Shown here: positions 10,031 to 34,392 of the stretch, one piece after another
Numbering within the stretch: the stretch's first letter is position 1
Layout of the letters: the number at the start of each line of letters is the position of its first letter
Origin: Escherichia coli
Lineage (GTDB): Bacteria > Pseudomonadota > Gammaproteobacteria > Enterobacterales > Enterobacteriaceae
Assembly (NCBI RefSeq): GCF_003018235.1
Contig: NZ_CP027437.1
Strand: one strand, 5' to 3'
Length of the DNA stretch: 64,000 nt
Position numbers and translations under genes: made by a program
Notes under the pieces: generated by a model
What the model was told of the DNA's origin: nothing
The model's database searches: none
Seen by the model: only the letters and a program-made list of their open reading frames with translations

Positions 10031-11251
10031 GTGGTTGCTGAAAATCAGCCTGGGCACATTGATCAAATAAAGCAGACCAACGCGGGCGCGGTTTATCGCC
10101 TGATTGATCAGCTTGGTCCAGTCTCGCGTATCGATCTTTCCCGTCTGGCGCAGCTGGCTCCTGCCAGTATCACTAAAATTGTCCGTGAGATGCTCGAAGC
10201 ACACCTGGTGCAAGAGCTGGAAATCAAAGAAGCGGGGAACCGTGGCCGTCCGGCAGTGGGGCTGGTGGTTGAAACTGAAGCCTGGCACTATCTTTCTCTG
10301 CGCATTAGTCGCGGGGAGATTTTCCTTTCTTTGCGCGATCTGAGCAGCAAACTGGTAGTGGAGGAGTCGCAGGAACTGGCGTTAAAAGATGACTCGCCAT
10401 TGCTGGATCGTATCATTTCCCATATCGATCAGTTTTTTATCCGCCACCAGAAAAAACTTGAGCGTCTGACTTCGATTGCCATAACCTTGCCGGGAATTAT
10501 TGATACGGAAAATGGTATTGTACATCGCATGCCGTTCTACGAGGATGTAAAAGAGATGCCGCTCGGCGAGGCGCTGGAGCAGCATACCGGCGTACCGGTT
10601 TATATTCAGCATGATATCAGCGCATGGACGATGGCTGAGGCCTTGTTTGGTGCCTCACGCGGGGCGCGCGATGTGATTCAGGTGGTTATCGATCACAACG
10701 TGGGGGCGGGCGTCATTACCGATGGTCATCTGCTACACGCAGGCAGCAGTAGCCTCGTGGAAATAGGTCACACGCAGGTCGACCCGTATGGGAAACGCTG
10801 TTATTGCGGGAATCACGGCTGCCTCGAAACCATCGCCAGTGTAGACAGTATTCTTGAGCTGGCACAGCTGCGTCTCAATCAATCCATGAGCTCGATGTTA
10901 CATGGACAACCGTTAACCGTGGACTCATTGTGTCAGGCGGCATTGCGCGGCGATCTACTGGCAAAAGACATCATTACCGGGGTAGGCGCGCATGTCGGTC
11001 GCATTCTTGCCATCATGGTGAATTTATTTAACCCACAAAAAATACTGATTGGCTCACCGTTAAGTAAAGCGGCAGATATCCTCTTCCCGGTCATCTCGGA
11101 CAGCATCCGTCAGCAGGCCCTTCCTGCGTATAGTCAGCACATTAGCGTTGAGAGTACTCAGTTTTCTAACCAGGGTACGATGGCAGGGGCTGCGCTGGTA
11201 AAAGACGCGATGTATAACGGTTCTTTGTTGATTCGTCTGTTGCAGGGTTAA
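10031..11251 (+). CDS. mlc: ROK-family global repressor Mlc (DgsA)
   Basis: 406 aa starting at GTG (MVAENQPGHIDQIKQTNAGAVYRLIDQLGPVSRIDL), ROK zinc motif CYCGNHGCLE. Confidence 0.9.
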   Translation: MVAENQPGHIDQIKQTNAGAVYRLIDQLGPVSRIDLSRLAQLAPASITKIVREMLEAHLVQELEIKEAGNRGRPAVGLVVETEAWHYLSLRISRGEIFLSLRDLSSKLVVEESQELALKDDSPLLDRIISHIDQFFIRHQKKLERLTSIAITLPGIIDTENGIVHRMPFYEDVKEMPLGEALEQHTGVPVYIQHDISAWTMAEALFGASRGARDVIQVVIDHNVGAGVITDGHLLHAGSSSLVEIGHTQVDPYGKRCYCGNHGCLETIASVDSILELAQLRLNQSMSSMLHGQPLTVDSLCQAALRGDLLAKDIITGVGAHVGRILAIMVNLFNPQKILIGSPLSKAADILFPVISDSIRQQALPAYSQHISVESTQFSNQGTMAGAALVKDAMYNGSLLIRLLQG

Positions 11252-13280: not shown

Positions 13281-13473
13281 AGTGCGCAGATCCGGATAGA
13301 TGTGTAGATGATGCATGAGCAGAAATGGGCAATGAAACACGGGCGACTATTTTGCGGCAAAAGAGGCCAGACGCAAAAGCAGTGCGTGCTTTAAGAGATA
13401 AAAAACGTGACACTGTAACCTATTATTGCCGAATTGCGCGTAATCGCCACCATCCGGCAATATTACGGTGATC

Positions 13474-14088
13474 CTATCGAAAGAGTGGTTTAACCGCGAC
13501 AGGAATTAACAGTTGTGATTGCCATTGCGCCAGCGTTAAGCGAGCCAGTTCACCCAGTGCACGGTAGAAAGGGTGTTCTGCTTTTTCGATAAAAACGTCA
13601 AGAAAACGTGTTGACCACGGAAAAAGGTGCCATGCCAGCAATTCTTCGCATTCTGTCTGGCGACCATTCTCCGCCAACCACGCAGCCATCAACAGCAGTG
13701 AACCAAAATGATCTTCCGGTTCGTTTTGCTGCATTTCAAACTGAATGCCTTTCTCGCGCATCCACTGACGAAGTGCCAATGTTGAATCGCCAAACAGCAC
13801 AGATTCGCGATCCAGCCAGACCGACCCCCACGGCGGTGATGGCAGAGCCCACGGACCGACAAACAAACGCTGCCAGGCCTGGGCGCGAGTCTCTTCACTC
13901 TGTGCCTGAAAAGCCGTCACCAGCGGCGCTAATGACGCTTCTGGTAGAGGCCACTGAGTTTCCCAGCCGTCACGGGTGAGTACCGCAACCAGGGGGGCGG
14001 CTTCCGCACTCTCTGGAGCGTAATAAAACAGCGCGCCCAACACGCGCGCCGCGACAGAAAAATTATCTTGCTGTGAAAAATGGGTCAT
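13474..14088 (-). CDS. dmsD: Tat proofreading chaperone DmsD
   Basis: 204 aa from MTHFSQQDNFSVAARVLGALFYYAPESAEAAPLVAVL; last gene of the ynfEFGH-dmsD cluster. Confidence 0.9.
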   Translation of the reverse strand: MTHFSQQDNFSVAARVLGALFYYAPESAEAAPLVAVLTRDGWETQWPLPEASLAPLVTAFQAQSEETRAQAWQRLFVGPWALPSPPWGSVWLDRESVLFGDSTLALRQWMREKGIQFEMQQNEPEDHFGSLLLMAAWLAENGRQTECEELLAWHLFPWSTRFLDVFIEKAEHPFYRALGELARLTLAQWQSQLLIPVAVKPLFR

Positions 14089-14130: not shown

Positions 14131-14985
14131 TTAACCTGCAATAGCCATTCCTACCGTCATGTGCAGGCCATAAAAGAGCACACGCCCGATCATCTCACCG
14201 CCAAGTATGAGGATTAGCCCCAGAACAAGTCCGGCAACGTGAGGTTCACGGCGACGAATGAGCGGACAAAGCCAGCATCCTAGACCTGTGCATAACAATA
14301 CCACACGCCAGACCTGTAAGGAGGCGTAATCTGGTACCAGTGCGCTGGCTTGTTGTACGGATGAGTGAATAGACGCCAGAGACAAACCTTGCAGCACAAT
14401 CACCCCGGCACAAGCGATCAGCGCCAGAACGCTAATGATGGCAAATGGTGTGGTATTAAATGTAACGCGGGCTGCCCGCAGAATTGCAGCAGCAAGTATT
14501 GGACCGCTCAATAATACTGTCAGGAAGAAAGCCAGCGTAGTGTAACCGTTATGCCAGGTTGGCACAGTGTCGATTTGATACACGCCGGTCATCATCCAGA
14601 CGAAAATGACGCCGAGCGCCATGCTGACAAGTAACCAGAGTTTCCCCAACGCTTGCGGCATTTTACCGATGATCGCCACCAGCCACCATAATCCGCCAAC
14701 GGCAAAAAATATTGAACCGGCAGCAATCTCGTTACTCAGACCAGAAGCTCCGATTCGATTCAGCGAGTTAAACGCCCGCAGTGGCGATCCCAGGTGCATG
14801 ACAGAGGCAATAAACCCGATGCCCATCAACAGCCAGAGGAAAAACATGCCACGAACAATGTGCTGACGGTCTGCGTCATTTTTGGCGGCGAACCAGCCAA
14901 TTCCGCTAACAATCAGCGCGCCTACTACGCATTGACCCAATACGGTAAAGATAACCAGTGGCCATTCATGCCATCCATTTCCCAT
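14131..14985 (-). CDS. ynfH: DMSO-reductase-type membrane anchor subunit YnfH (DmsC paralogue)
   Basis: 284 aa from MGNGWHEWPLVIFTVLGQCVVGALIV; 8-TM anchor; track ORF has an 80-aa unsupported upstream extension overlapping ynfG. Confidence 0.85.
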   Translation of the reverse strand: MGNGWHEWPLVIFTVLGQCVVGALIVSGIGWFAAKNDADRQHIVRGMFFLWLLMGIGFIASVMHLGSPLRAFNSLNRIGASGLSNEIAAGSIFFAVGGLWWLVAIIGKMPQALGKLWLLVSMALGVIFVWMMTGVYQIDTVPTWHNGYTTLAFFLTVLLSGPILAAAILRAARVTFNTTPFAIISVLALIACAGVIVLQGLSLASIHSSVQQASALVPDYASLQVWRVVLLCTGLGCWLCPLIRRREPHVAGLVLGLILILGGEMIGRVLFYGLHMTVGMAIAG

Positions 14986-14986
14986 T

Positions 14987-15604
14987 TTACACTTCCTCCG
15001 GATTAGCCAGATAACCAGTGGTATCGCCGGTCGGGCGGCTGTTGGCGTTAGGTTTGATAACGATATTGGGTTTTGTGAAATGCGCGCGCGGCAGTGGCGC
15101 GACGGCAGCCAGAGTGCCGTGCTTCTGGCGCAGCTCTTCAATTGGACCGAACTCAAGTGCACGCAGCGGGCAGGATTCGACGCATATGGGTTGTTTCCCC
15201 TCGGCGACGCGCGAATAACAACCATCGCACTTCGTCATGTGCCCTTTTTCAGCATTGTACTGTGGCGCGCCGTACGGACAAGCCATGTGGCAGTAGCGGC
15301 AGCCGATACAAACATCTTCATCAACCACCACAAAGCCATCTTCACGCTTATGCATTGCGCCGCTGGGGCAGACTTTTGTACATGCGGGGTCATCGCAATG
15401 GTTACAGGAGATGGAGAGATAATAAGCGAACACGTTCTGGTGCCAGACGCCATTATCTTCCTGCCAGTCGCCGCCAGCATATTCATAAATACGGCGGAAA
15501 CTGACTTCCGGGCCAAGATCTTTAAAATCTTTGCACGCCAGTTCGCAGGTTTTACAGCCAGTACAGCGGCTGGAATCGATAAAAAATCCATATTGTGTGG
15601 TCAT
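14987..15604 (-). CDS. ynfG: DMSO-reductase-type 4Fe-4S subunit YnfG (DmsB paralogue)
   Basis: 205 aa with four ferredoxin-type Cys clusters (CTGCKTCELAC, CNHCDDPACTKVC, CIGCRYCHMACP, CDGCYSRVAEGKQPICVESCP). Confidence 0.9.
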   Translation of the reverse strand: MTTQYGFFIDSSRCTGCKTCELACKDFKDLGPEVSFRRIYEYAGGDWQEDNGVWHQNVFAYYLSISCNHCDDPACTKVCPSGAMHKREDGFVVVDEDVCIGCRYCHMACPYGAPQYNAEKGHMTKCDGCYSRVAEGKQPICVESCPLRALEFGPIEELRQKHGTLAAVAPLPRAHFTKPNIVIKPNANSRPTGDTTGYLANPEEV

Positions 15605-15614
15605 GGGCTACTCC

Positions 15615-18038
15615 TTAAACCTTTTCGATCTGGACAAGATTGCTGTGCGACGGGTTTCCCTTTGCCAGCGGTGAAGGGCGGTGAGAGGTCAGAATATTGA
15701 TACTGCCGCCGTGATCGACCCGGTCACCAAACATATCCGCTTTAAGCCACGCACCTTGCCCGATGGCGGTAACGCCAGGCAGAATACGCGGAGTCACTTT
15801 TGCGGCAATCAGCATTTCTCCATTATTGTTAAATACCCGCACGGTATCGCCATGACGGATACCGCGTGCCTGAGCATCAATAGGGTTTATCCACACCTCT
15901 TGTGGGCAGGCCTGCTGTAACACATCAATATTGCCGTAGCTGGAGTGGGTACGCGCTTTGTAGTGGAAGCCCGTTAGCTGCAGTGGATAGGTTTTCCGCA
16001 GGGGATCGTCCCAGCCATCAAAACCTGGGGTATACGCAGGAAGGGGATGAATAATTTCATCTTTTTTCAATTCCCAGGTATCCGCAATCGTCGCCAGTCG
16101 TTCAGAATAAATTTCGATTTTCCCCGAAGGTGTTTTCAACGGGTTTGCCTGTGGATCTTCACGGAATGCGCGGAAAGCGACGTAGTGTTCTTCCGGGCAT
16201 TTTTTCTTAAAGATCCCGGTCGTTTTCATCTCCTCGTAGTCGGGCATCTCAGGGTTACGTTCCTTCGTTTTCGCATGGAGATATTTGATCCATTCGTGCT
16301 GACTGCGGCCTTCAGTAAAGGTTTGATAAACGTCTGGTCCTAAGCGTTTGGCGACTTCACTCAGCATCCAGTAGATGGGTTTGCGTTCAAATTTTGCTGA
16401 GGTTGCGGGTTGGGCGAGGATCACATAGCCCATATTCCCGGCAGATTCGTGAGAGATAAGGTCTTCTTGCTCTGTTGGCATCAGGTCGGGCAACAGGATA
16501 TCGCAATACTTAGCCGAGGCAGTCATGAAGTGGTCAATGCCAACAATCATCTCGCACTTGCTGTCATCCTGAAGCACCTCATGGGTGTGATTGATGTCGC
16601 CATGTTGATTGATCAATGTGTTACTGGCGTAGCACCATAAAAACTTGATGGGGACATCCAGTTTTTCTTTTCCACGAACACCATCACGGGTCGCGGTCAT
16701 TTCCGTACCGTGGTCGATGGCATCTGTCCATGTAAAGACGGAAATCTGCGTTTTAACAGGATTCTCAAGCATCGGGAACCATTCTACCCCCAGATCCCAG
16801 CTACCTTCGCGTACACCTGAGTTGCCGCCGTTTATGCCGACGTTACCGGTGAGAACGGAAAGCATGGCAATAGCGCGGGACGTTTGTTCGCCGTTGGAGT
16901 GTCGTTGTGGCCCCCAACCCTGACAAATATAAGCAGGTTTTGCTGAACCGATCTCTCGTGCCAACTGGATAATTTTTTCTGCCGGGATGCTGGTGATTTT
17001 TGCTGCCCATTCCGGCGTTTTAGCTATGCCGTCAGGCCCTTCGCCCAGAATATAGGCTTTATAATGCGCGTTACGTGGTGCGTTGGCGGGCAGCGTTTTT
17101 TCATCGTAACCAACACAATATTTGTCGAGAAATGGCTGATCGACCATGTTTTCAGTAATCAGTACCCAGGCAATCGCACAGGCCAGTGCGCCATCGGTGC
17201 CTGGGCGAATTGGCAGCCATTCATCTTCACGCCCGGCAGCAGTGTCGTTATAACGTGGATCGATGACGATCATGCGTGCGTTTGAACGTTCTCGGGCTTG
17301 CTCGACGTAGTAAGTGACACCACCGCCGCTCATCCGGGTTTCTGCCGGGTTATTTCCGAACATAACGACCAGTTTCGTATTGGCTATATCATCCGGGCTG
17401 TTGCCATCATTGGCACCGAACATATAACTCATTGCGGCACTGATTTGAGCGGTACTGTAGCTGCCATAGCGACTGAGAAAACCACCGCAAGAGTTCATCA
17501 GACGGTACGGGACGTTCGAGTTGGTGATGTTTCCGCCATCTACGCCTGTTCCGTACAGGACATGTACAGCCTCATTGCCGTATTCTTTCAGGATCCGCCG
17601 AAGATTATCACTGATGGTATCCAGGGCTTCATCCCAACTTATCCGTTCAAATTTACCTTCACCGCGCTTGCCGACGCGCTTCATGGGATATTTCAACCTA
17701 TCAGGATGATTCATCCGTCGGCGGATAGAGCGCCCGCGTAAACACGCCCGAACCTGATGATTACCGTAGACGTCGTCACCTGTCGTATCAGACTCCACCC
17801 AGTACACGGTGTCATCTTTCACATGCAAACGTAACAGACAGCGGCTCCCGCAGTTAACGGTGCAGGAACTCCAGACCGCTTTCTCTTCTACCGGTGCCTC
17901 TGCCGCTCGGACCATTTGGGAAAATGGCAGAGTGAAAGCACTGCTTGCCAGCGCAAGACTGCCAAGTGCGGAGGTTTTCATCAGACTTCTACGGCTGATT
18001 TCAGCCTTCATGAGCGCCTCTGTGGTATGGATTTTCAT
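15615..18038 (-). CDS. ynfF: Molybdopterin oxidoreductase catalytic subunit YnfF (DmsA paralogue, selenate/DMSO reductase family)
   Basis: 807 aa from MKIHTTEALMKAEISRRSLMK (twin-arginine signal), N-terminal Cys cluster CTVNCGSRC, molybdopterin-binding domains. Confidence 0.9.
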   Translation of the reverse strand: MKIHTTEALMKAEISRRSLMKTSALGSLALASSAFTLPFSQMVRAAEAPVEEKAVWSSCTVNCGSRCLLRLHVKDDTVYWVESDTTGDDVYGNHQVRACLRGRSIRRRMNHPDRLKYPMKRVGKRGEGKFERISWDEALDTISDNLRRILKEYGNEAVHVLYGTGVDGGNITNSNVPYRLMNSCGGFLSRYGSYSTAQISAAMSYMFGANDGNSPDDIANTKLVVMFGNNPAETRMSGGGVTYYVEQARERSNARMIVIDPRYNDTAAGREDEWLPIRPGTDGALACAIAWVLITENMVDQPFLDKYCVGYDEKTLPANAPRNAHYKAYILGEGPDGIAKTPEWAAKITSIPAEKIIQLAREIGSAKPAYICQGWGPQRHSNGEQTSRAIAMLSVLTGNVGINGGNSGVREGSWDLGVEWFPMLENPVKTQISVFTWTDAIDHGTEMTATRDGVRGKEKLDVPIKFLWCYASNTLINQHGDINHTHEVLQDDSKCEMIVGIDHFMTASAKYCDILLPDLMPTEQEDLISHESAGNMGYVILAQPATSAKFERKPIYWMLSEVAKRLGPDVYQTFTEGRSQHEWIKYLHAKTKERNPEMPDYEEMKTTGIFKKKCPEEHYVAFRAFREDPQANPLKTPSGKIEIYSERLATIADTWELKKDEIIHPLPAYTPGFDGWDDPLRKTYPLQLTGFHYKARTHSSYGNIDVLQQACPQEVWINPIDAQARGIRHGDTVRVFNNNGEMLIAAKVTPRILPGVTAIGQGAWLKADMFGDRVDHGGSINILTSHRPSPLAKGNPSHSNLVQIEKV

Positions 18039-18098
18039 CATTACTCACTTATTGCTTTTCAAACAAAATGTCATGTCAGAATTTATGGTTGTAGTGGG

Positions 18099-20524
18099 TT
18101 ATATTTTTTCGATCTCGACCAGATTAGTGTGCTGCGGGTTTCCCTTCGCCAGTGGTGAAGGGCGCAGAGTGGTTAGCGTATTCACACAGCCGCCATGGTC
18201 GATTTTATCGCCAGACATATTGGCCTCGTGCCAGGCTCCCTGGCCCATAGCGCTAACCCCAGGGAGAATGCGTGGTGTCACTTTGGCTGGTAGCCGAACT
18301 TCGCCACGATGGTTATACACCCGCACCATATCGCCGTTGGCAATCCCACGTTTCTGTGCGTCTATAGGGTTGATCCACACCTCCTGACGGCAGGCAGCCT
18401 TCAGGACATCAATGTTGCCGTAGGTCGAGTGAGTACGGGATTTGTAATGGAAACCGAACAGTTGCAGTGGAAAGGTACTACGTTCAGGGGAGTCCCAGCC
18501 TTCAAAGGTTGAGGCATAAACCGGCAGTGGGCTTATCACTTCATCTTTTTCCAGTTCCCAGGTACGGGCAATTTCCGCCAGCTTGCTGGAATAAATTTCA
18601 ATCTTACCGGAAGGCGTTTTAAGTGGATTTGCCTCGGGGTCGTCACGAAATGCTTTGTAGGCGACAAAATGACCATTGGGATCTTTACGCTTATAGATAC
18701 CCATTTTTTTCAGTTCGTCGTAAGACGGTAACGCCGGATCTTTGGCAAGCATTTTGGCGTACAGATGTTGTAACCATTGTTCCTGCGTGCGACCTTCTGT
18801 GAACTTTTGATAGACGTCAGGTCCAAGACGTTTCGCGACCTCACTCAGGATCCAGTAAATCGGTTTGCGTTCGAATTTTTCGCTGGTGACTGGCTGAAGG
18901 AAAATGAGATATCCCATGTTACCGGCGTAGTCGTTAGGAATAATATCTTCCTGCTCAACGGTCATCAGGTCTGGCAGCAGAATGTCGGCATATTTTGCCG
19001 ATGAGGTCATAAAGTTTTCGATGACCACAATCATTTCGCATTTCGATTCGTCCTGCAGAATTTCATGCGTTTTGTTGATGTCAGAATGCTGATTAACGAG
19101 GGTATTTCCCGCATAGTTCCAGATGAACTTAATGGGCACATCCAGTTTATCTTTGCCCCGGACACCGTCGCGGATTGCCGTCATTTGCGGGCCATGATCG
19201 ATAGCATCTGTCCAGCTGAAGCAGGAGATTGACGTTTTGACCGGATTATCCAGCACCGGTAGGCGTTCTATGGTAATGGTATAGGTCGATTCACGCGCGC
19301 CACTATTCCCGCCGCTGATGCCGACATTGCCCGTCAGAATAGGCAACATCGCAATAGCACGTGCAGTCAGCTCGCCGTTTGCCTGGCGTTGCGGTCCCCA
19401 GCCCTGGCAGATATAAGCGGGTTTTGCTGTGCCAATTTCACGCGCCAGTTTGATGATACGGTCCACCGGGATACCGGTAATTTGCGAAGCCCACTGCGGC
19501 GTTTTCGCTGTTTTATCGTCACCTTCACCAAGAATATAGGCTTTATAGTGACCATTTTTTGGTGCATCTGCGGGTAAGGTTTTTTCGTCATAGCCGACGC
19601 AGTATTTATCGAGAAAAGGTTGATCAACGAGATTTTCGTTAATCAATACCCAGGCAATACCCGCAACCAGCGCGGCATCGGTGCCCGGGCGAATAGGTTG
19701 CCATTCGTCTTCACGACCAGCAGCTGTATCGGTATATCGCGGATCGATAACAATCATTTTGCGTTCGATTTCTCGCGCGCTTTTTCAAGAAGATAAGTGA
19801 TGCCACCGCCGCTCATGCGGGTTTCTGCCGGGTTGTTACCAAACATCACGACCAGCTTGCTGTTTTCAATATCCGTGGTGCTGTTGCCATCATTACTGCC
19901 GTAGGTGTAGGGCATGGCACAGGAAATTTGCGCGGTGCTGTAGGAGCCATACTGGTTGAGTGAACCGCCGTAGCAGTTCATCAGGCGTTTGACCGCCGAG
20001 GCGGATGGCGAAGAGCGGGTCATATTGCCGCCAACGATCCCTGAAGAGTACTGAATATATACAGCCTCATTGCCATATTGTTCGACGGTTTTTTTCAGGC
20101 TACTGGCGATAGTATCCAGGGCTTCATCCCAGCTAATCCGTTCGAATTTGCCTTCGCCGCGTTTGCCCACGCGTTTCATTGGGTAATTCAAGCGATCGGG
20201 ATGATTAATACGCCGACGGATGGAGCGACCGCGCAAACAGGCACGTACTTGATGATTGCCATACTCGTCGTTGCCGGTGTTGTCAGTTTCCACCCAGGTC
20301 ACTTCATTATCTTTAACATGCAGACGAAGTGCACAGCGGCTACCACAGTTGACGGAACAGGCACCACAGAGCACTTTCTCGCTGGCCTGTTGTACCGCTG
20401 CCGCTGCACTGCGCAGGGTGAACGGTAAAGAAAAACCGCCTGCAGCCAGCGCCAGAGAACCTATCGCGGTAGATTTAACGAGTGTTCTGCGGCTGATGCC
20501 CACCATTTGTTCATTTTTGGACAT
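18099..20524 (-). pseudogene. ynfE: ynfE (DmsA-type catalytic subunit) interrupted by a 1-bp frameshift in a homopolymer run
   Basis: Two adjacent ORFs in different frames (19754..20524, 256 aa, twin-arginine N-terminus MSKNEQMVGISRRTLVK; 18099..19757, 552 aa, begins MIVIDPRY) together align collinearly with intact YnfF; junction reads gca aaa tga ttg on the coding strand, where the paralogue has an in-frame ...NAR-MIVIDPRY. Confidence 0.75.
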
Positions 20525-23246: not shown

Positions 23247-23451
23247 GGACATAAATCCATTTTATCAATAAGATACAAGGAAGTGTCAGCTGACAAAAGG
23301 TATTCTATTTCATCTTTTGTCAACCATTCACGGCGCAAATATACGCCTTTTTTTGTGATCACTCCGGCTTTTTTTGATCTTCATGCTTGTATGGTAGTAG
23401 CTCAGTTGCGTAGATTTCATGCATCATGACAAGCGATGCAAGGAATCGAAC

Positions 23452-25884: not shown

Positions 25885-27180
25885 TTAATTTTTCATTGCT
25901 TCGTTATGGGGCATGGTTGGGGCAAACTCGCTTAACTGTGTATTTAACAAAGCTACCTGTGCATTATTGTTTTCAGACATCCATTTTCCGTATACCTGAA
26001 ATACCATTTGCGCATCTGCATGGCCCATCTGGTTTGCTATAAATGCCGGGTTAGCACCAGCTGTCAGCGACCAGCAGGCATAAGTATGTCTCGACTGATA
26101 TGATTTTCGATGGCGGAGTCCGGCACGTTTTATCGCTGCGTCCCACATCTGCCTTATTGAGTCAACGGTAAAATGGTCACCATAATTTTTTACTCTCGCT
26201 GACACTTCAGGTTGAAAAACAAAGGTGCATTTTTGTTTTTCTGTTCTGCCATACTCTCTGAGGTGAACATCAATGATATGCTCTTTGCTCAGTCTCGTTA
26301 ATGTCATCTGACTCCGGAGAGCGTCGATTGCTGGCTTAATAAGATGAATGACCCGATTGGTTCCCGCCTGTGTTTTTGGTACCGTGAAACGGTCTTTTGC
26401 TAAATTTCTCCTGATCATCATTGTTCCATTTTTCAGATCTATGTCCTCCCATCCAAGTGCACACAGCTCACCAGGGCGAACGCCAGTATAAACAGAAACA
26501 CACCATAAATTTTTTGCTTGCTGATTTCTGCACGCATCGATAAGACGGATAAATTCCTCCCGCGAAAGAGGATCCGGAATGGTTCTTGATTCCTTTAATG
26601 GCGAGATCCCCTTAAACGGATTATCTGGCAGGTAACCGTTATCAACACCAAACTGGAACACGGCGTTAAGATTTGTCATGTAATTATTTACAGTTACAGC
26701 CGATCTCCCTGGTTGTGTAACAATATAGTTACTTTTGGGGATCTGGTATCCAGTCAGTAGCTCTTTACGAACCTCCAGTAATTTTTCTTTATTAATCGAT
26801 GAGGCAAGATTTTTTTCACCGATTATGCTCAGGATATTTTTGATGACGGCACGGTATGTGTTGAGTGATGTTTTGGCGACTTCAGTTTCTTTCAGTGCCA
26901 GAAATTTTTCAGCCAGTTCTTTTATGGTTAAATCTTGTCGGGCCTCACCAAATTTTTCCAGATTGCGTGAGGAGGGAAACTGTTTTGCATAGTCGAAAAC
27001 ACCAGTTTTTATTGCGTAACAAACAGAGGAGCGTAGTTCACCTGCAACGCGCCTGTTTTTTGCTGTGTCAGGAACCCCCAGATTTTCCCTGACTCTTACG
27101 CCTTTATAAACAAACCAGATACGTAATTTCCATCCATGGTTTTCCACGCCTGTCGGATATTTCATTTCAACTTCTCTCAT
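25885..27180 (-). CDS. intQ: Prophage tyrosine integrase (lambda Int family), apparently intact
   Basis: 431-aa ORF (alternative start MKYPTGVENHGWKL at 27165); C-terminal catalytic region with R...HxxR...Y residues (RHRKSYQSRHTYACW... MGHADAQMVFQVYGKW); adjacent to attachment junction. Confidence 0.85.
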   Translation of the reverse strand: MREVEMKYPTGVENHGWKLRIWFVYKGVRVRENLGVPDTAKNRRVAGELRSSVCYAIKTGVFDYAKQFPSSRNLEKFGEARQDLTIKELAEKFLALKETEVAKTSLNTYRAVIKNILSIIGEKNLASSINKEKLLEVRKELLTGYQIPKSNYIVTQPGRSAVTVNNYMTNLNAVFQFGVDNGYLPDNPFKGISPLKESRTIPDPLSREEFIRLIDACRNQQAKNLWCVSVYTGVRPGELCALGWEDIDLKNGTMMIRRNLAKDRFTVPKTQAGTNRVIHLIKPAIDALRSQMTLTRLSKEHIIDVHLREYGRTEKQKCTFVFQPEVSARVKNYGDHFTVDSIRQMWDAAIKRAGLRHRKSYQSRHTYACWSLTAGANPAFIANQMGHADAQMVFQVYGKWMSENNNAQVALLNTQLSEFAPTMPHNEAMKN

Positions 27181-27523: not shown

Positions 27524-29995
27524 TTAAGAATCAGCCTGACTCGGGATCAGTTTTTGCCAGATAACTGAAACGTATTTTGCCTGGTAACGGGCGTCATCAA
27601 GTGCATTATGGCGCTCACCTTCGAATGGAATAGCCGTTCTGGCATCGAAGTCTATGGCTTTCCCCAGCTCAACGATTGTGCGTACATCGCGATCGTTGTA
27701 GTAACGCCACGGGCAGGGGATCCCCTGCCGTTCGTATGAACGGCGCAAAATCGTGTTGTCGAAGTTGGCTCCATTTCCCCAAACCTGAACAAAAAATTCA
27801 CCGGAGTTTTCGTCGATAAATTCCCGCAATTGTAACAGTGCATCATCTAACGGGATTTCATCGGTCATAATGGCAGATTGCGCTTCGCGTGATTGCTTAA
27901 GCCACCATTTAATGGTGTCCCGATCAATGACTCCGCCAGCAGTTTCCAGATCGATAGTCTTACTAAATTCCGGTCCCATATCTCCGGTTTGCGGATCGAA
28001 AAATATTGCACCTATTGAGATGATCGGGGCATCAGGATTTTTTCCCATGGTTTCAAGGTCGATCATTAGATGGTCACACGTCCTGCTGGTGGATGTGATT
28101 TCGTGATGACCGTTCACCTTAATTGAGTGATCTGCCGTCTCGCCAGTTTCATTATCGCTATTGTGATGCTGATTGCCGCCAGTGTTCTCCTTGTGTGGAT
28201 GTTCAGCGCCTTCCATTTCCTCCGGATCATCTTCCTGAACTTCAACCTGATACTCTTCATCGAATGTTTCTTGGTATGTTGCGTCGCCCATCACCGCGCC
28301 ACAATCAGGGCAGTTGCCGCCGCCGGTCTGACCGCAGGCGGTGCAGACTTTTTCCACTTCCTGTTGCGCCACTGGTTCAGGCTGTTTCGTTTCTGGCTCG
28401 TTTTGTAACGCATTTGTGCTGTTTTGTTCCGCTTTTTGGTAGTTCCGTTCCGATTCATGCTGGTTCTGGTTCACAGAATCGCGGGTCTGGATCCCCTTAA
28501 CCCATTTCGGATCATTCGGGTCACTAATCCCTTCAACAAATTCACCACGTGATGCAGCAAGCAACTTATCGGCGTCAGGCTGGCTGATATTGGCTGCCTG
28601 CATAATTTTGTTTACTTCGTCAGCGGTAACTTTTATCGGCTCTGGTTGTTCTGAATCTTCAGCGGTATCTACATTTTGCGGTAAGCCCGTGTATGTGCCA
28701 TTTTTTCGGGCAAAATATTCTTCTTTTGTGATTTCAGTGGCGCCAGCAGCCAGTGCCTTATCCAGACCAGAAAGTTTGTTTGCGCGACCGTATTTTTCTC
28801 CGTCCTTATCTGCGAAGAGGAAATAGAACGGCCCCTCACGCTCTACAGATGGTTCAGCTTCCGGCGCGGTTTCATTTTTTGGGATATCAGATACCTCAGT
28901 TTCCACTGCATCAGTTTGTGTTTCTGATGACTGGAGAACATCAACAGTGCCCAGGTCTGTTTCTTCATTCTCAAACACGCCCTTTGTCGTCAGGTATTCG
29001 CAGATATATTTGTTCAGTGCTATGGGATCTTTGTGAATGTCGATCGGACGCTCACGGACAAGGCCAAAAATAGTCTGGCGGTCGTAGCGAAGGGCATCAG
29101 GCTGTTTGCGCATTGATGCCGAGATACGCTTCCAGTCTTCGCGGTCGTTGTCGATAACTTCTTTTTTTGCCCAGCGATGGATGCTGCCGTCAATGTTTCC
29201 GGCATCCACATCACCAGGCCAGAGAGCGTAGGCCAGTTCGTCATCCAGTGTTTTCCATGTCTGCTTGTATTCGCGATGAATGGCAGCAATGACCGGGCTG
29301 ATTTTTCCTGTTGAATTTTCAGTGTACTGTTGATTGGCTCTGGCGCGGGCGAGATCAACAACAGACGTGTATTTTCCGGTTTCCTTGCGTTCACCTTCGC
29401 GACGTTTTTTCCAGATGCGCATCTCTGCCTGAATTTCGGGCCATTTAGCACCAGGAATACATTTATGCTTAACCCACCCAATGGCGTGCAACTTAAGCTC
29501 CGGATACATGGCGTTAACTTCTGGCATTTTCATCAACGCTTCAACGATATGTCCGTCGAATGTTGCCATGTCTTCCTGCAACAATTCCTGTGCGCTAATA
29601 ACCATATCAACGGTGATGTTTTCACATGTGTCGAACTTAACCATGACAGCGTTCTGTACTTCAGGGGCCAGCTTGTCAAAAGTGACGTTCATCGGATCGG
29701 ATTCAGTCTCAACCGGGACAAAAGAAGCAGACTCCTCATCCCAGCGGTTTTCCTGCATATATTCAGCATCCCATGAATCGAGGGCAGGGCGGGGTATGCC
29801 AGGTTTATCCTCGCAGACAATAAATTTATAAGCGCAGTCCTGAGCAGCCGGATAATGTTCCAGGAACTGCCAGTGAAATTTTGCTCGAGCACGGCGTTCG
29901 TCGCCAGCTTCAATGGCTGTGGCTACAGCCACAGCGCCTTCTTCCCTTGTTGCCAGTTCGTCAGGAATAGCGGCGCAAATAAAGACTTTACTCAT
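27524..29995 (-). CDS. Large prophage protein with C-terminal DnaQ-like 3'-5' exonuclease domain (full-length YdfE-like; annotated in related prophages as exodeoxyribonuclease VIII)
   Basis: 823 aa; C-terminal ~190 aa carries exonuclease-type acidic motifs (MIDLETMG, WGNGANFD, HNALDDARYQ); central CxxC...CxxC (CTACGQTGGGNCPDCG); acidic low-complexity linker. Confidence 0.7.
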   Translation of the reverse strand: MSKVFICAAIPDELATREEGAVAVATAIEAGDERRARAKFHWQFLEHYPAAQDCAYKFIVCEDKPGIPRPALDSWDAEYMQENRWDEESASFVPVETESDPMNVTFDKLAPEVQNAVMVKFDTCENITVDMVISAQELLQEDMATFDGHIVEALMKMPEVNAMYPELKLHAIGWVKHKCIPGAKWPEIQAEMRIWKKRREGERKETGKYTSVVDLARARANQQYTENSTGKISPVIAAIHREYKQTWKTLDDELAYALWPGDVDAGNIDGSIHRWAKKEVIDNDREDWKRISASMRKQPDALRYDRQTIFGLVRERPIDIHKDPIALNKYICEYLTTKGVFENEETDLGTVDVLQSSETQTDAVETEVSDIPKNETAPEAEPSVEREGPFYFLFADKDGEKYGRANKLSGLDKALAAGATEITKEEYFARKNGTYTGLPQNVDTAEDSEQPEPIKVTADEVNKIMQAANISQPDADKLLAASRGEFVEGISDPNDPKWVKGIQTRDSVNQNQHESERNYQKAEQNSTNALQNEPETKQPEPVAQQEVEKVCTACGQTGGGNCPDCGAVMGDATYQETFDEEYQVEVQEDDPEEMEGAEHPHKENTGGNQHHNSDNETGETADHSIKVNGHHEITSTSRTCDHLMIDLETMGKNPDAPIISIGAIFFDPQTGDMGPEFSKTIDLETAGGVIDRDTIKWWLKQSREAQSAIMTDEIPLDDALLQLREFIDENSGEFFVQVWGNGANFDNTILRRSYERQGIPCPWRYYNDRDVRTIVELGKAIDFDARTAIPFEGERHNALDDARYQAKYVSVIWQKLIPSQADS

Positions 29996-30636: not shown

Positions 30637-32872
<2,236 letters not shown>

Positions 32873-33739: not shown

Positions 33740-34236
33740 CTTGTTGAAATTAGAGGAAATCTTGAAGCCATGATATGGCTTAAAATAACGTTTGATTATT
33801 TTACCTGCTGTTTGTCCCTGGTTTAAAGTCGGTTGTCTGATTTGATTACGCGCAACTGACGCTTACGTATTGAAGTAACGAGCACGAAGACACATATTTA
33901 TCAGTGCCTGTATACGTCAAGAGCAGGAGATTTATGTGCTGGTTCTCAAATGCACGCTGGCTATTGTGGCTGTAATGGCAATTTATTGTCTTGTTATTGT
34001 TCTTATGGATCACCTTACTGATTGATTTCATATTGGCGAGGTAACGGTAGTTAAGTAGAATGGCTGCGGGTGCTTGAGGCTATCTGCCTCGGGCATGAAC
34101 ACCAACGGCAGATAGAGAAAAGCCCCAGTTAACATTACGCGTCCTGCAAGACGCTTAACATTAATCTGAGGCCAATTTCATGCTAGACACATGTAGGTTA
34201 GCCTCTTACGTGCCGAAAGGCAAGGAGAAGCAGGCT

Positions 34237-34392
34237 ATGAAGCAGCAAAAGGCGATGTTAATCGCCCTGATCGTCATTTGTTTAACCGTCATAGTGACGG
34301 CACTGGTAACGAGGAAAGACCTCTGCGAGGTACGAATCCGAACCGGCCAGACGGAGGTCGCTGTCTTCACAGCTTACGAACCTGAGGAGTAA
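34237..34392 (+). CDS. hokD: Hok-family type I toxin HokD (RelF)
   Basis: 51 aa MKQQKAMLIALIVICLTVIVTALVTRKDLCEVRIRTGQTEVAVFTAYEPEE; RBS AAGGAGAAG; overlapping upstream mok-like frame from 34180. Confidence 0.85.
   Translation: MKQQKAMLIALIVICLTVIVTALVTRKDLCEVRIRTGQTEVAVFTAYEPEE

Follow-up and report, generated by a model that had tools for sequence, protein, structure and literature searches.

A probable recent slippage in an A-run interrupts ynfE in part of one Escherichia coli clone

The window analysed here, a stretch of 64,000 nucleotides of an Escherichia coli genome, carries the genes ynfEFGH-dmsD on its minus strand. The place of ynfE is that of the first gene of the group, downstream of ynfD, and the gene order is identical in annotated relatives. 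Four of the genes are intact: ynfF, the tandem paralogue of ynfE (15615..18041), ynfG (14987-15604), ynfH (14131-14985) and dmsD (13474-14088). A preliminary description of this DNA had held that ynfF is whole, and it is indeed uninterrupted and scores 1774.5 bits against its own profile NF041884, above the cut-off of 1650. Compared with the ynfF of O169:H41 it has 15 synonymous differences and one nonsynonymous difference, and no internal stop. The gene ynfE, in contrast to its paralogue, is present as two minus-strand open reading frames (ORFs), one at 19754..20524 (256 aa) and one at 18099..19757 (552 aa), as listed by the ORF table with its translations.

Read directly, the minus strand at the junction of these two frames runs ...GAG AAA TCG AAC GCA AAA TGA TTG TTA TCG.... 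The frameshift site is the run of four A's at 19757..19760 (four T's on the plus strand), which has five A's in intact alleles, where the codons read GCA AAA ATG. The deletion leaves stop and start interlocked as ATGA at 19754..19757: the 3' fragment begins with an ATG at 19757-19755, the native Met257 codon, which shares bases with the TGA (19756-19754) that ends the 5' fragment. The first translation ends with ...EKSNAK* and the second starts with MIVIDPRYTD..., and both are collinear with intact YnfF (...ERSNARMIVIDPRYND...), as had been noted in the preliminary description. Together the two products come to 256 + 552 = 808 aa, the exact length of YnfE, with zero residues missing or changed; the expectation that one extra A would restore an 808-aa frame thus holds to the residue.

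The family profiles divide at the same point. Against the NCBIfam model for YnfE (NF041885) the first ORF covers profile positions 2-253 with 510.8 bits and the second covers positions 254-805 with 1249.3 bits, so that the fragments are contiguous on the profile; for both the top score is to YnfE rather than to YnfF or DmsA. Neither fragment singly reaches the cut-off of 1675 bits, while the summed score of approximately 1760 exceeds it. A single uninterrupted YnfE of about 808 aa that reaches this cut-off is absent from the window, where a stop follows codon 256. The 5' fragment holds the Tat signal ISRRTLVK (residues 10-17 of its translation), the Fe4S4 cysteine motif C56-x3-C60-x3-C64 and the first third of the molybdopterin oxidoreductase domain, with Pfam matches to PF04879 at residues 54-108 and to profile positions 1-127 of PF00384. 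The 3' fragment holds the remainder of PF00384 (profile positions 140-353), followed by the molybdopterin dinucleotide-binding domain PF01568. The break therefore lies inside PF00384, between profile positions 127 and 140 and just ahead of the conserved IVIDPR strand, which in YnfE aligns with the matching strands of DorA and TorA-type reductases.

We compared the ynfE alleles of related strains, the check proposed with the preliminary description, and found one base more in the intact orthologues and in the clone-mates alike. Every complete E. coli genome with an alignment spanning ynfE has one base more there (2427 nt versus 2426 nt in the window), and the additional base of the intact alleles falls exactly at the A-run, as the proposed 1-bp loss in an A/T homopolymer requires. 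The window's ynfE is 99.4% identical at the DNA level to the intact ynfE of the best complete RefSeq genome. At the junction, O169:H41 reads GCA AAA ATG and strain 042 reads GCC AAA ATG. Loss of the C from a GCC codon of the 042 type was considered and rejected: with a C restored only 042 is equally close, and the clone-mates have five A's. With an A restored in a 205-nt query, 569 complete genomes are at least 99% identical, and five A's are present in the intact clone-mates L014 and L015. The alleles compared indicate that the event is a contraction of five A's to four, from an ancestral GCA AAA ATG to GCA AAA TGA. The 75-nt junction with four A's occurs in 0 of the 5,296 complete E. coli genomes having a match, and no GTDB species representative contains the exact junction. 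In 315 of 5,426 complete genomes, no contiguous match covers 80% or more of ynfE.

The four-A allele is by no means confined to the window. It is found on 22-23 other public contigs; the exact 256-aa product is on 21-23 public contigs and the exact 552-aa product on 20. The five contigs that were read, Logan assemblies of separate SRA runs (SRR21507360, SRR11357309, SRR20959444, SRR15713652 and SRR21461730), all carry it, and here the evidence from independent runs takes the form of assemblies built from reads. These five are 99.96-99.99% identical to the window and have private SNPs both relative to the window and relative to each other. The same clone also holds the intact state. Adding one A back yields an 808-aa protein (P0031) that is on record under four NCBI accessions annotated YnfE and on eight contigs, which gives 22-23 contigs with four A's versus eight with five. 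Specifically, GCA_012768955.1 and the Logan assembly of SRR35421096, both with five A's, differ from the window at three positions each over approximately 19 kb, the A-run included. Since clone-mates still have five A's and encode an identical but uninterrupted protein, the frameshift is a recent polymorphism inside the clone and not an old fixed loss.

The distribution of flanking SNPs bears on how often the contraction arose. Of the few informative sites, the SNP at 10328 fits a four-A allele that arose once, and site 23385 is in four-gamete conflict both with the frameshift and with 10328. Given this conflict a single origin is unproven; most simply, the frameshift arose once and 23385 is homoplastic or recombined, and the A-run may instead have slipped repeatedly or reverted. 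Site 23385 lies in the intergenic region between ynfA and rspA, where an A7/A8 run and this C/T SNP are 17 nt apart (23369-23385), and this segment upstream of rspA may be a minor hotspot of mutation.

The ynfE of this clone also differs from others in three amino acids. Codons 52-53 (20366..20371, minus strand), directly before the Fe4S4 cysteine motif, read CTC TGT (Leu-Cys) versus GTC TGG (Val-Trp) elsewhere in E. coli, and codon 276 (19698..19700, minus strand) reads CAA (Gln) versus Leu or Ile in other YnfE and Leu in YnfF. The other YnfE sequences all have W at position 53 and L or I at position 276 (16 of 16), and YnfF has W and L. For the 75 nt around codons 52-53 the closest complete genome is still two mismatches away. 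For the 205 nt that include codon 276, with the A restored, no complete genome is 100% identical and the best is 99.5% identical, that is, one mismatch; we infer that this mismatch is the CAA codon, where two references read CTT or CTA. The intact allele (P0031) bears V52L, W53C and L276Q as well, which excludes decay after the frameshift as their source. The three substitutions are thus specific to the clone and older than the frameshift, and ynfE may already have been weakly constrained or impaired before its frame was broken. As a separate observation, W53C (codons 53-56, window 20357-20368) places an extra cysteine three residues ahead of the first cysteine of the motif, giving C-G-A-C-S-V-N-C-G-S-R-C. 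A private-SNP comparison against four references, made to look for enrichment in ynfE, also returned many 'private' sites in ynfL and mlc, which probably represent recombination imports.

Taken together, these results are best explained by a genuine and recent slippage in one E. coli clone, in which five A's at ynfE codons 255-257 became four and ynfE was inactivated; we put the probability of this reading at roughly 90%, with the loss of function predicted from the gene sequence. Translation in the original frame stops after residue 256, midway through the molybdopterin-binding domain, and the full-length, Tat-exported catalytic subunit YnfE would no longer be produced. The YnfFGH enzyme would be retained, with ynfF, ynfG, ynfH and dmsD all intact, and the loss would be tolerated owing to YnfF and to weak selection on ynfE in E. 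coli generally. Some synthesis of the C-terminal fragment is possible, given that both halves are of wild-type sequence and that stop and start overlap in ATGA.

The preliminary description had left a choice between genuine pseudogenisation and a homopolymer sequencing error. If the true genome had five A's, ynfE would be intact and the split an artefact of sequencing or assembly; the indel does sit in a homopolymer, and isolates with five A's do exist within the same clone. However, four A's recur in 22-23 contigs, from independent read sets with their own private SNPs, and the division between four and five A's is compatible with the informative SNP 10328. No fault of a single assembly can account for an allele that five separate assemblies with private SNPs carry. 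Nor does the window contain any other unexplained indel in 30.8 kb: over 30,854 bases aligned with a relative there are 219 mismatches and only two single-base gaps, and all 26 other backbone coding sequences are uninterrupted. The second gap, relative to O169:H41, is an A6/A7 run in the clcB-dmsD intergenic region (13393-13399), where two complete genomes match the A6 form without a mismatch over 75 nt and many others share its length; this difference is natural variation and no error. A general excess of homopolymer indels in the window can accordingly be set aside, there being just two in 30.8 kb, of which the second is a common natural allele. A run of four or five nucleotides is also well inside the accuracy of short-read sequencing. 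An error is hardly credible on this evidence, and the alleles indicate that the frameshift is a genuine mutation.

A genuine deletion could still be silent if both halves worked or if the frame were restored in translation, and could still be of benefit. A functional split enzyme would need reinitiation at the ATGA, assembly of the halves, cofactor binding and co-export through the N-terminal Tat signal. The deletion does yield an exact ATGA overlap, and the products do add up to the unaltered 808-aa sequence. However, nothing like AGGAGG precedes the ATG at the 5-13 nt spacing of a Shine-Dalgarno sequence (the closest GAG occupies -17 to -15), the cut falls within one Pfam domain and beside a conserved core strand, and the arrangement is limited to part of one clone and conserved nowhere else. 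We know of no precedent for such a functional split YnfE-type enzyme, and we give this reading very little chance. A four-A run is too short for transcriptional slippage. In translation, tRNA-Lys could slip by -1 on the A_AAA that precedes the UGA; the ribosome would then read AUG and could make full-length YnfE in useful amounts. Here the re-pairing is perfect (GC A_AAA_UGA), the product is exactly wild type, and A_AA.A is among the tetramers that respond to a stimulator (PMC4066793). Against this, unstimulated tetramers give about 0.15% frameshifting versus 0.11% background, A_AA.A is the weakest responsive motif (PMC4066793), and the four-A site is conserved nowhere else in other E. coli or in GTDB species representatives. 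Folding of the 94 nt downstream is no more stable than that of shuffled sequences (z = +0.74; 154 of 200 shuffles at least as good), and for want of such a stimulatory structure programmed frameshifting at A_AAA was rejected; we regard a useful slip as next to negligible. With neither a stimulatory structure nor a Shine-Dalgarno sequence, rescue by recoding or by reinitiation is unlikely, and it is very improbable that the 'pseudogene' is a functional, natural fragment-complementation variant that works by efficient reinitiation or by a -1 slip on A_AAA_UGA. A different kind of alternative is that the clone gains from losing YnfE, for instance because YnfG/YnfH and DmsD become available to YnfF or DmsA. 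Most sampled contigs of the clone have four A's (22-23 versus 8), ynfE has been inactivated repeatedly in E. coli, and YnfFGH is reportedly functional only in the absence of ynfE. However, public runs are not a random sample, weak selection equally predicts frequent pseudogenisation, and W53C and L276Q, at otherwise invariant positions and older than the frameshift, suggest a gene that was already little used. We consider adaptive loss unlikely; it concerns why the mutation spread and is compatible with slippage as the account of what the mutation is.

The slippage in ynfE has parallels of several kinds. By locus, synteny and sequence the window's gene is the ynfE of the E. coli/Salmonella ynfEFGH-dmsD system (NF041885), and it differs from the intact E. 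coli/Salmonella gene in that its frame is broken after codon 256. A 2026 pangenome study covering 2,377 E. coli genomes placed ynfE and ynfF among the most often pseudogenised metabolic genes (PMC13322260). The frameshift pseudogenes of that study are like the present case in gene, in class of event and in their restriction to a subset of strains; in contrast to them, the five-to-four allele is found in 0 of approximately 5,300 complete RefSeq genomes and segregates with an intact allele in its clone. Public collections contain further YnfE products that are truncated or frameshifted, P0006 and P0002 among them. In E. coli GPEC1031 (NZ_CM142797.1; L011 11114-19685) ynfE is split by an insertion of approximately 8.5 kb with a site-specific integrase, IS100 and an AP2-domain protein; here a mobile element has inactivated the gene independently. 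The junction also resembles the Z_ZZN sites for -1 frameshifting of IS3 and IS1 family elements, in its A_AAA, its perfect -1 re-pairing and the stop codon that follows; unlike those sites, it has no downstream stimulator and no conservation, and it arose by recent deletion from an in-frame gene. The lesion is thus ordinary gene decay of an already known kind, one more case of a documented pattern.

The selenate reductase is the product of the ynf operon according to the literature, and selenate reduction is lost in an E. coli strain that lacks ynfEF (PMC12724226). For Salmonella, PMC5203670, citing Guymer 2009, describes YnfE as the main subunit of the selenate reductase and says that YnfF 'does not contribute greatly'. 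The ynf enzyme has been linked to tellurate reduction too (Fujita 2021, as cited in PMC12096835). The preliminary description had called ynfE and ynfF two redundant genes for Tat-exported molybdoenzyme subunits. That there are two such genes stands, but 'redundant' is too strong: with YnfE the main and YnfF the minor subunit in Salmonella, in the account of PMC5203670, the paralogues are not simply redundant. Selenate and tellurate reduction are probably lowered in the clone.

These results have some practical consequences. In annotation, ynfE of this genome should be flagged as a frameshifted pseudogene and should not be repaired as though it were an assembly error; in metabolic models of the clone, selenate and tellurate reduction belong to YnfF only. 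The coexisting isolates with four and five A's are natural near-isogenic pairs in which the contribution of YnfE could be measured in the presence of YnfF.

Elsewhere in the window, a Qin/Rac-like lambdoid prophage (25885-64000) adjoins rspB; similarity to the closest complete genomes ends at approximately 30854. Its integrase lies at 25885-27165, the sRNA DicF at 30640-30691 on the minus strand, hok/sok at 34068-34242 and two cspA-type 5' UTRs at 39490-39913 and 42390-42775. It also has an excisionase, an exonuclease, a terminase, an ORF of the size of a tail tape measure protein and a J-like ORF, the roles in the late region being assigned by size and position only. No tRNA gene was found in the window, and between the ORFs at 36270-37022 and 41148-41681 there is no ORF of at least 150 aa, the size of an Stx A subunit. 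The exonuclease gene (27524-29995) differs from that of O169:H41 by 11 nonsynonymous and 6 synonymous changes, compared with a total of 23 nonsynonymous and 117 synonymous differences in the chromosomal backbone genes, a pattern that points to divergence of the exonuclease gene under much weaker constraint or by recombination.
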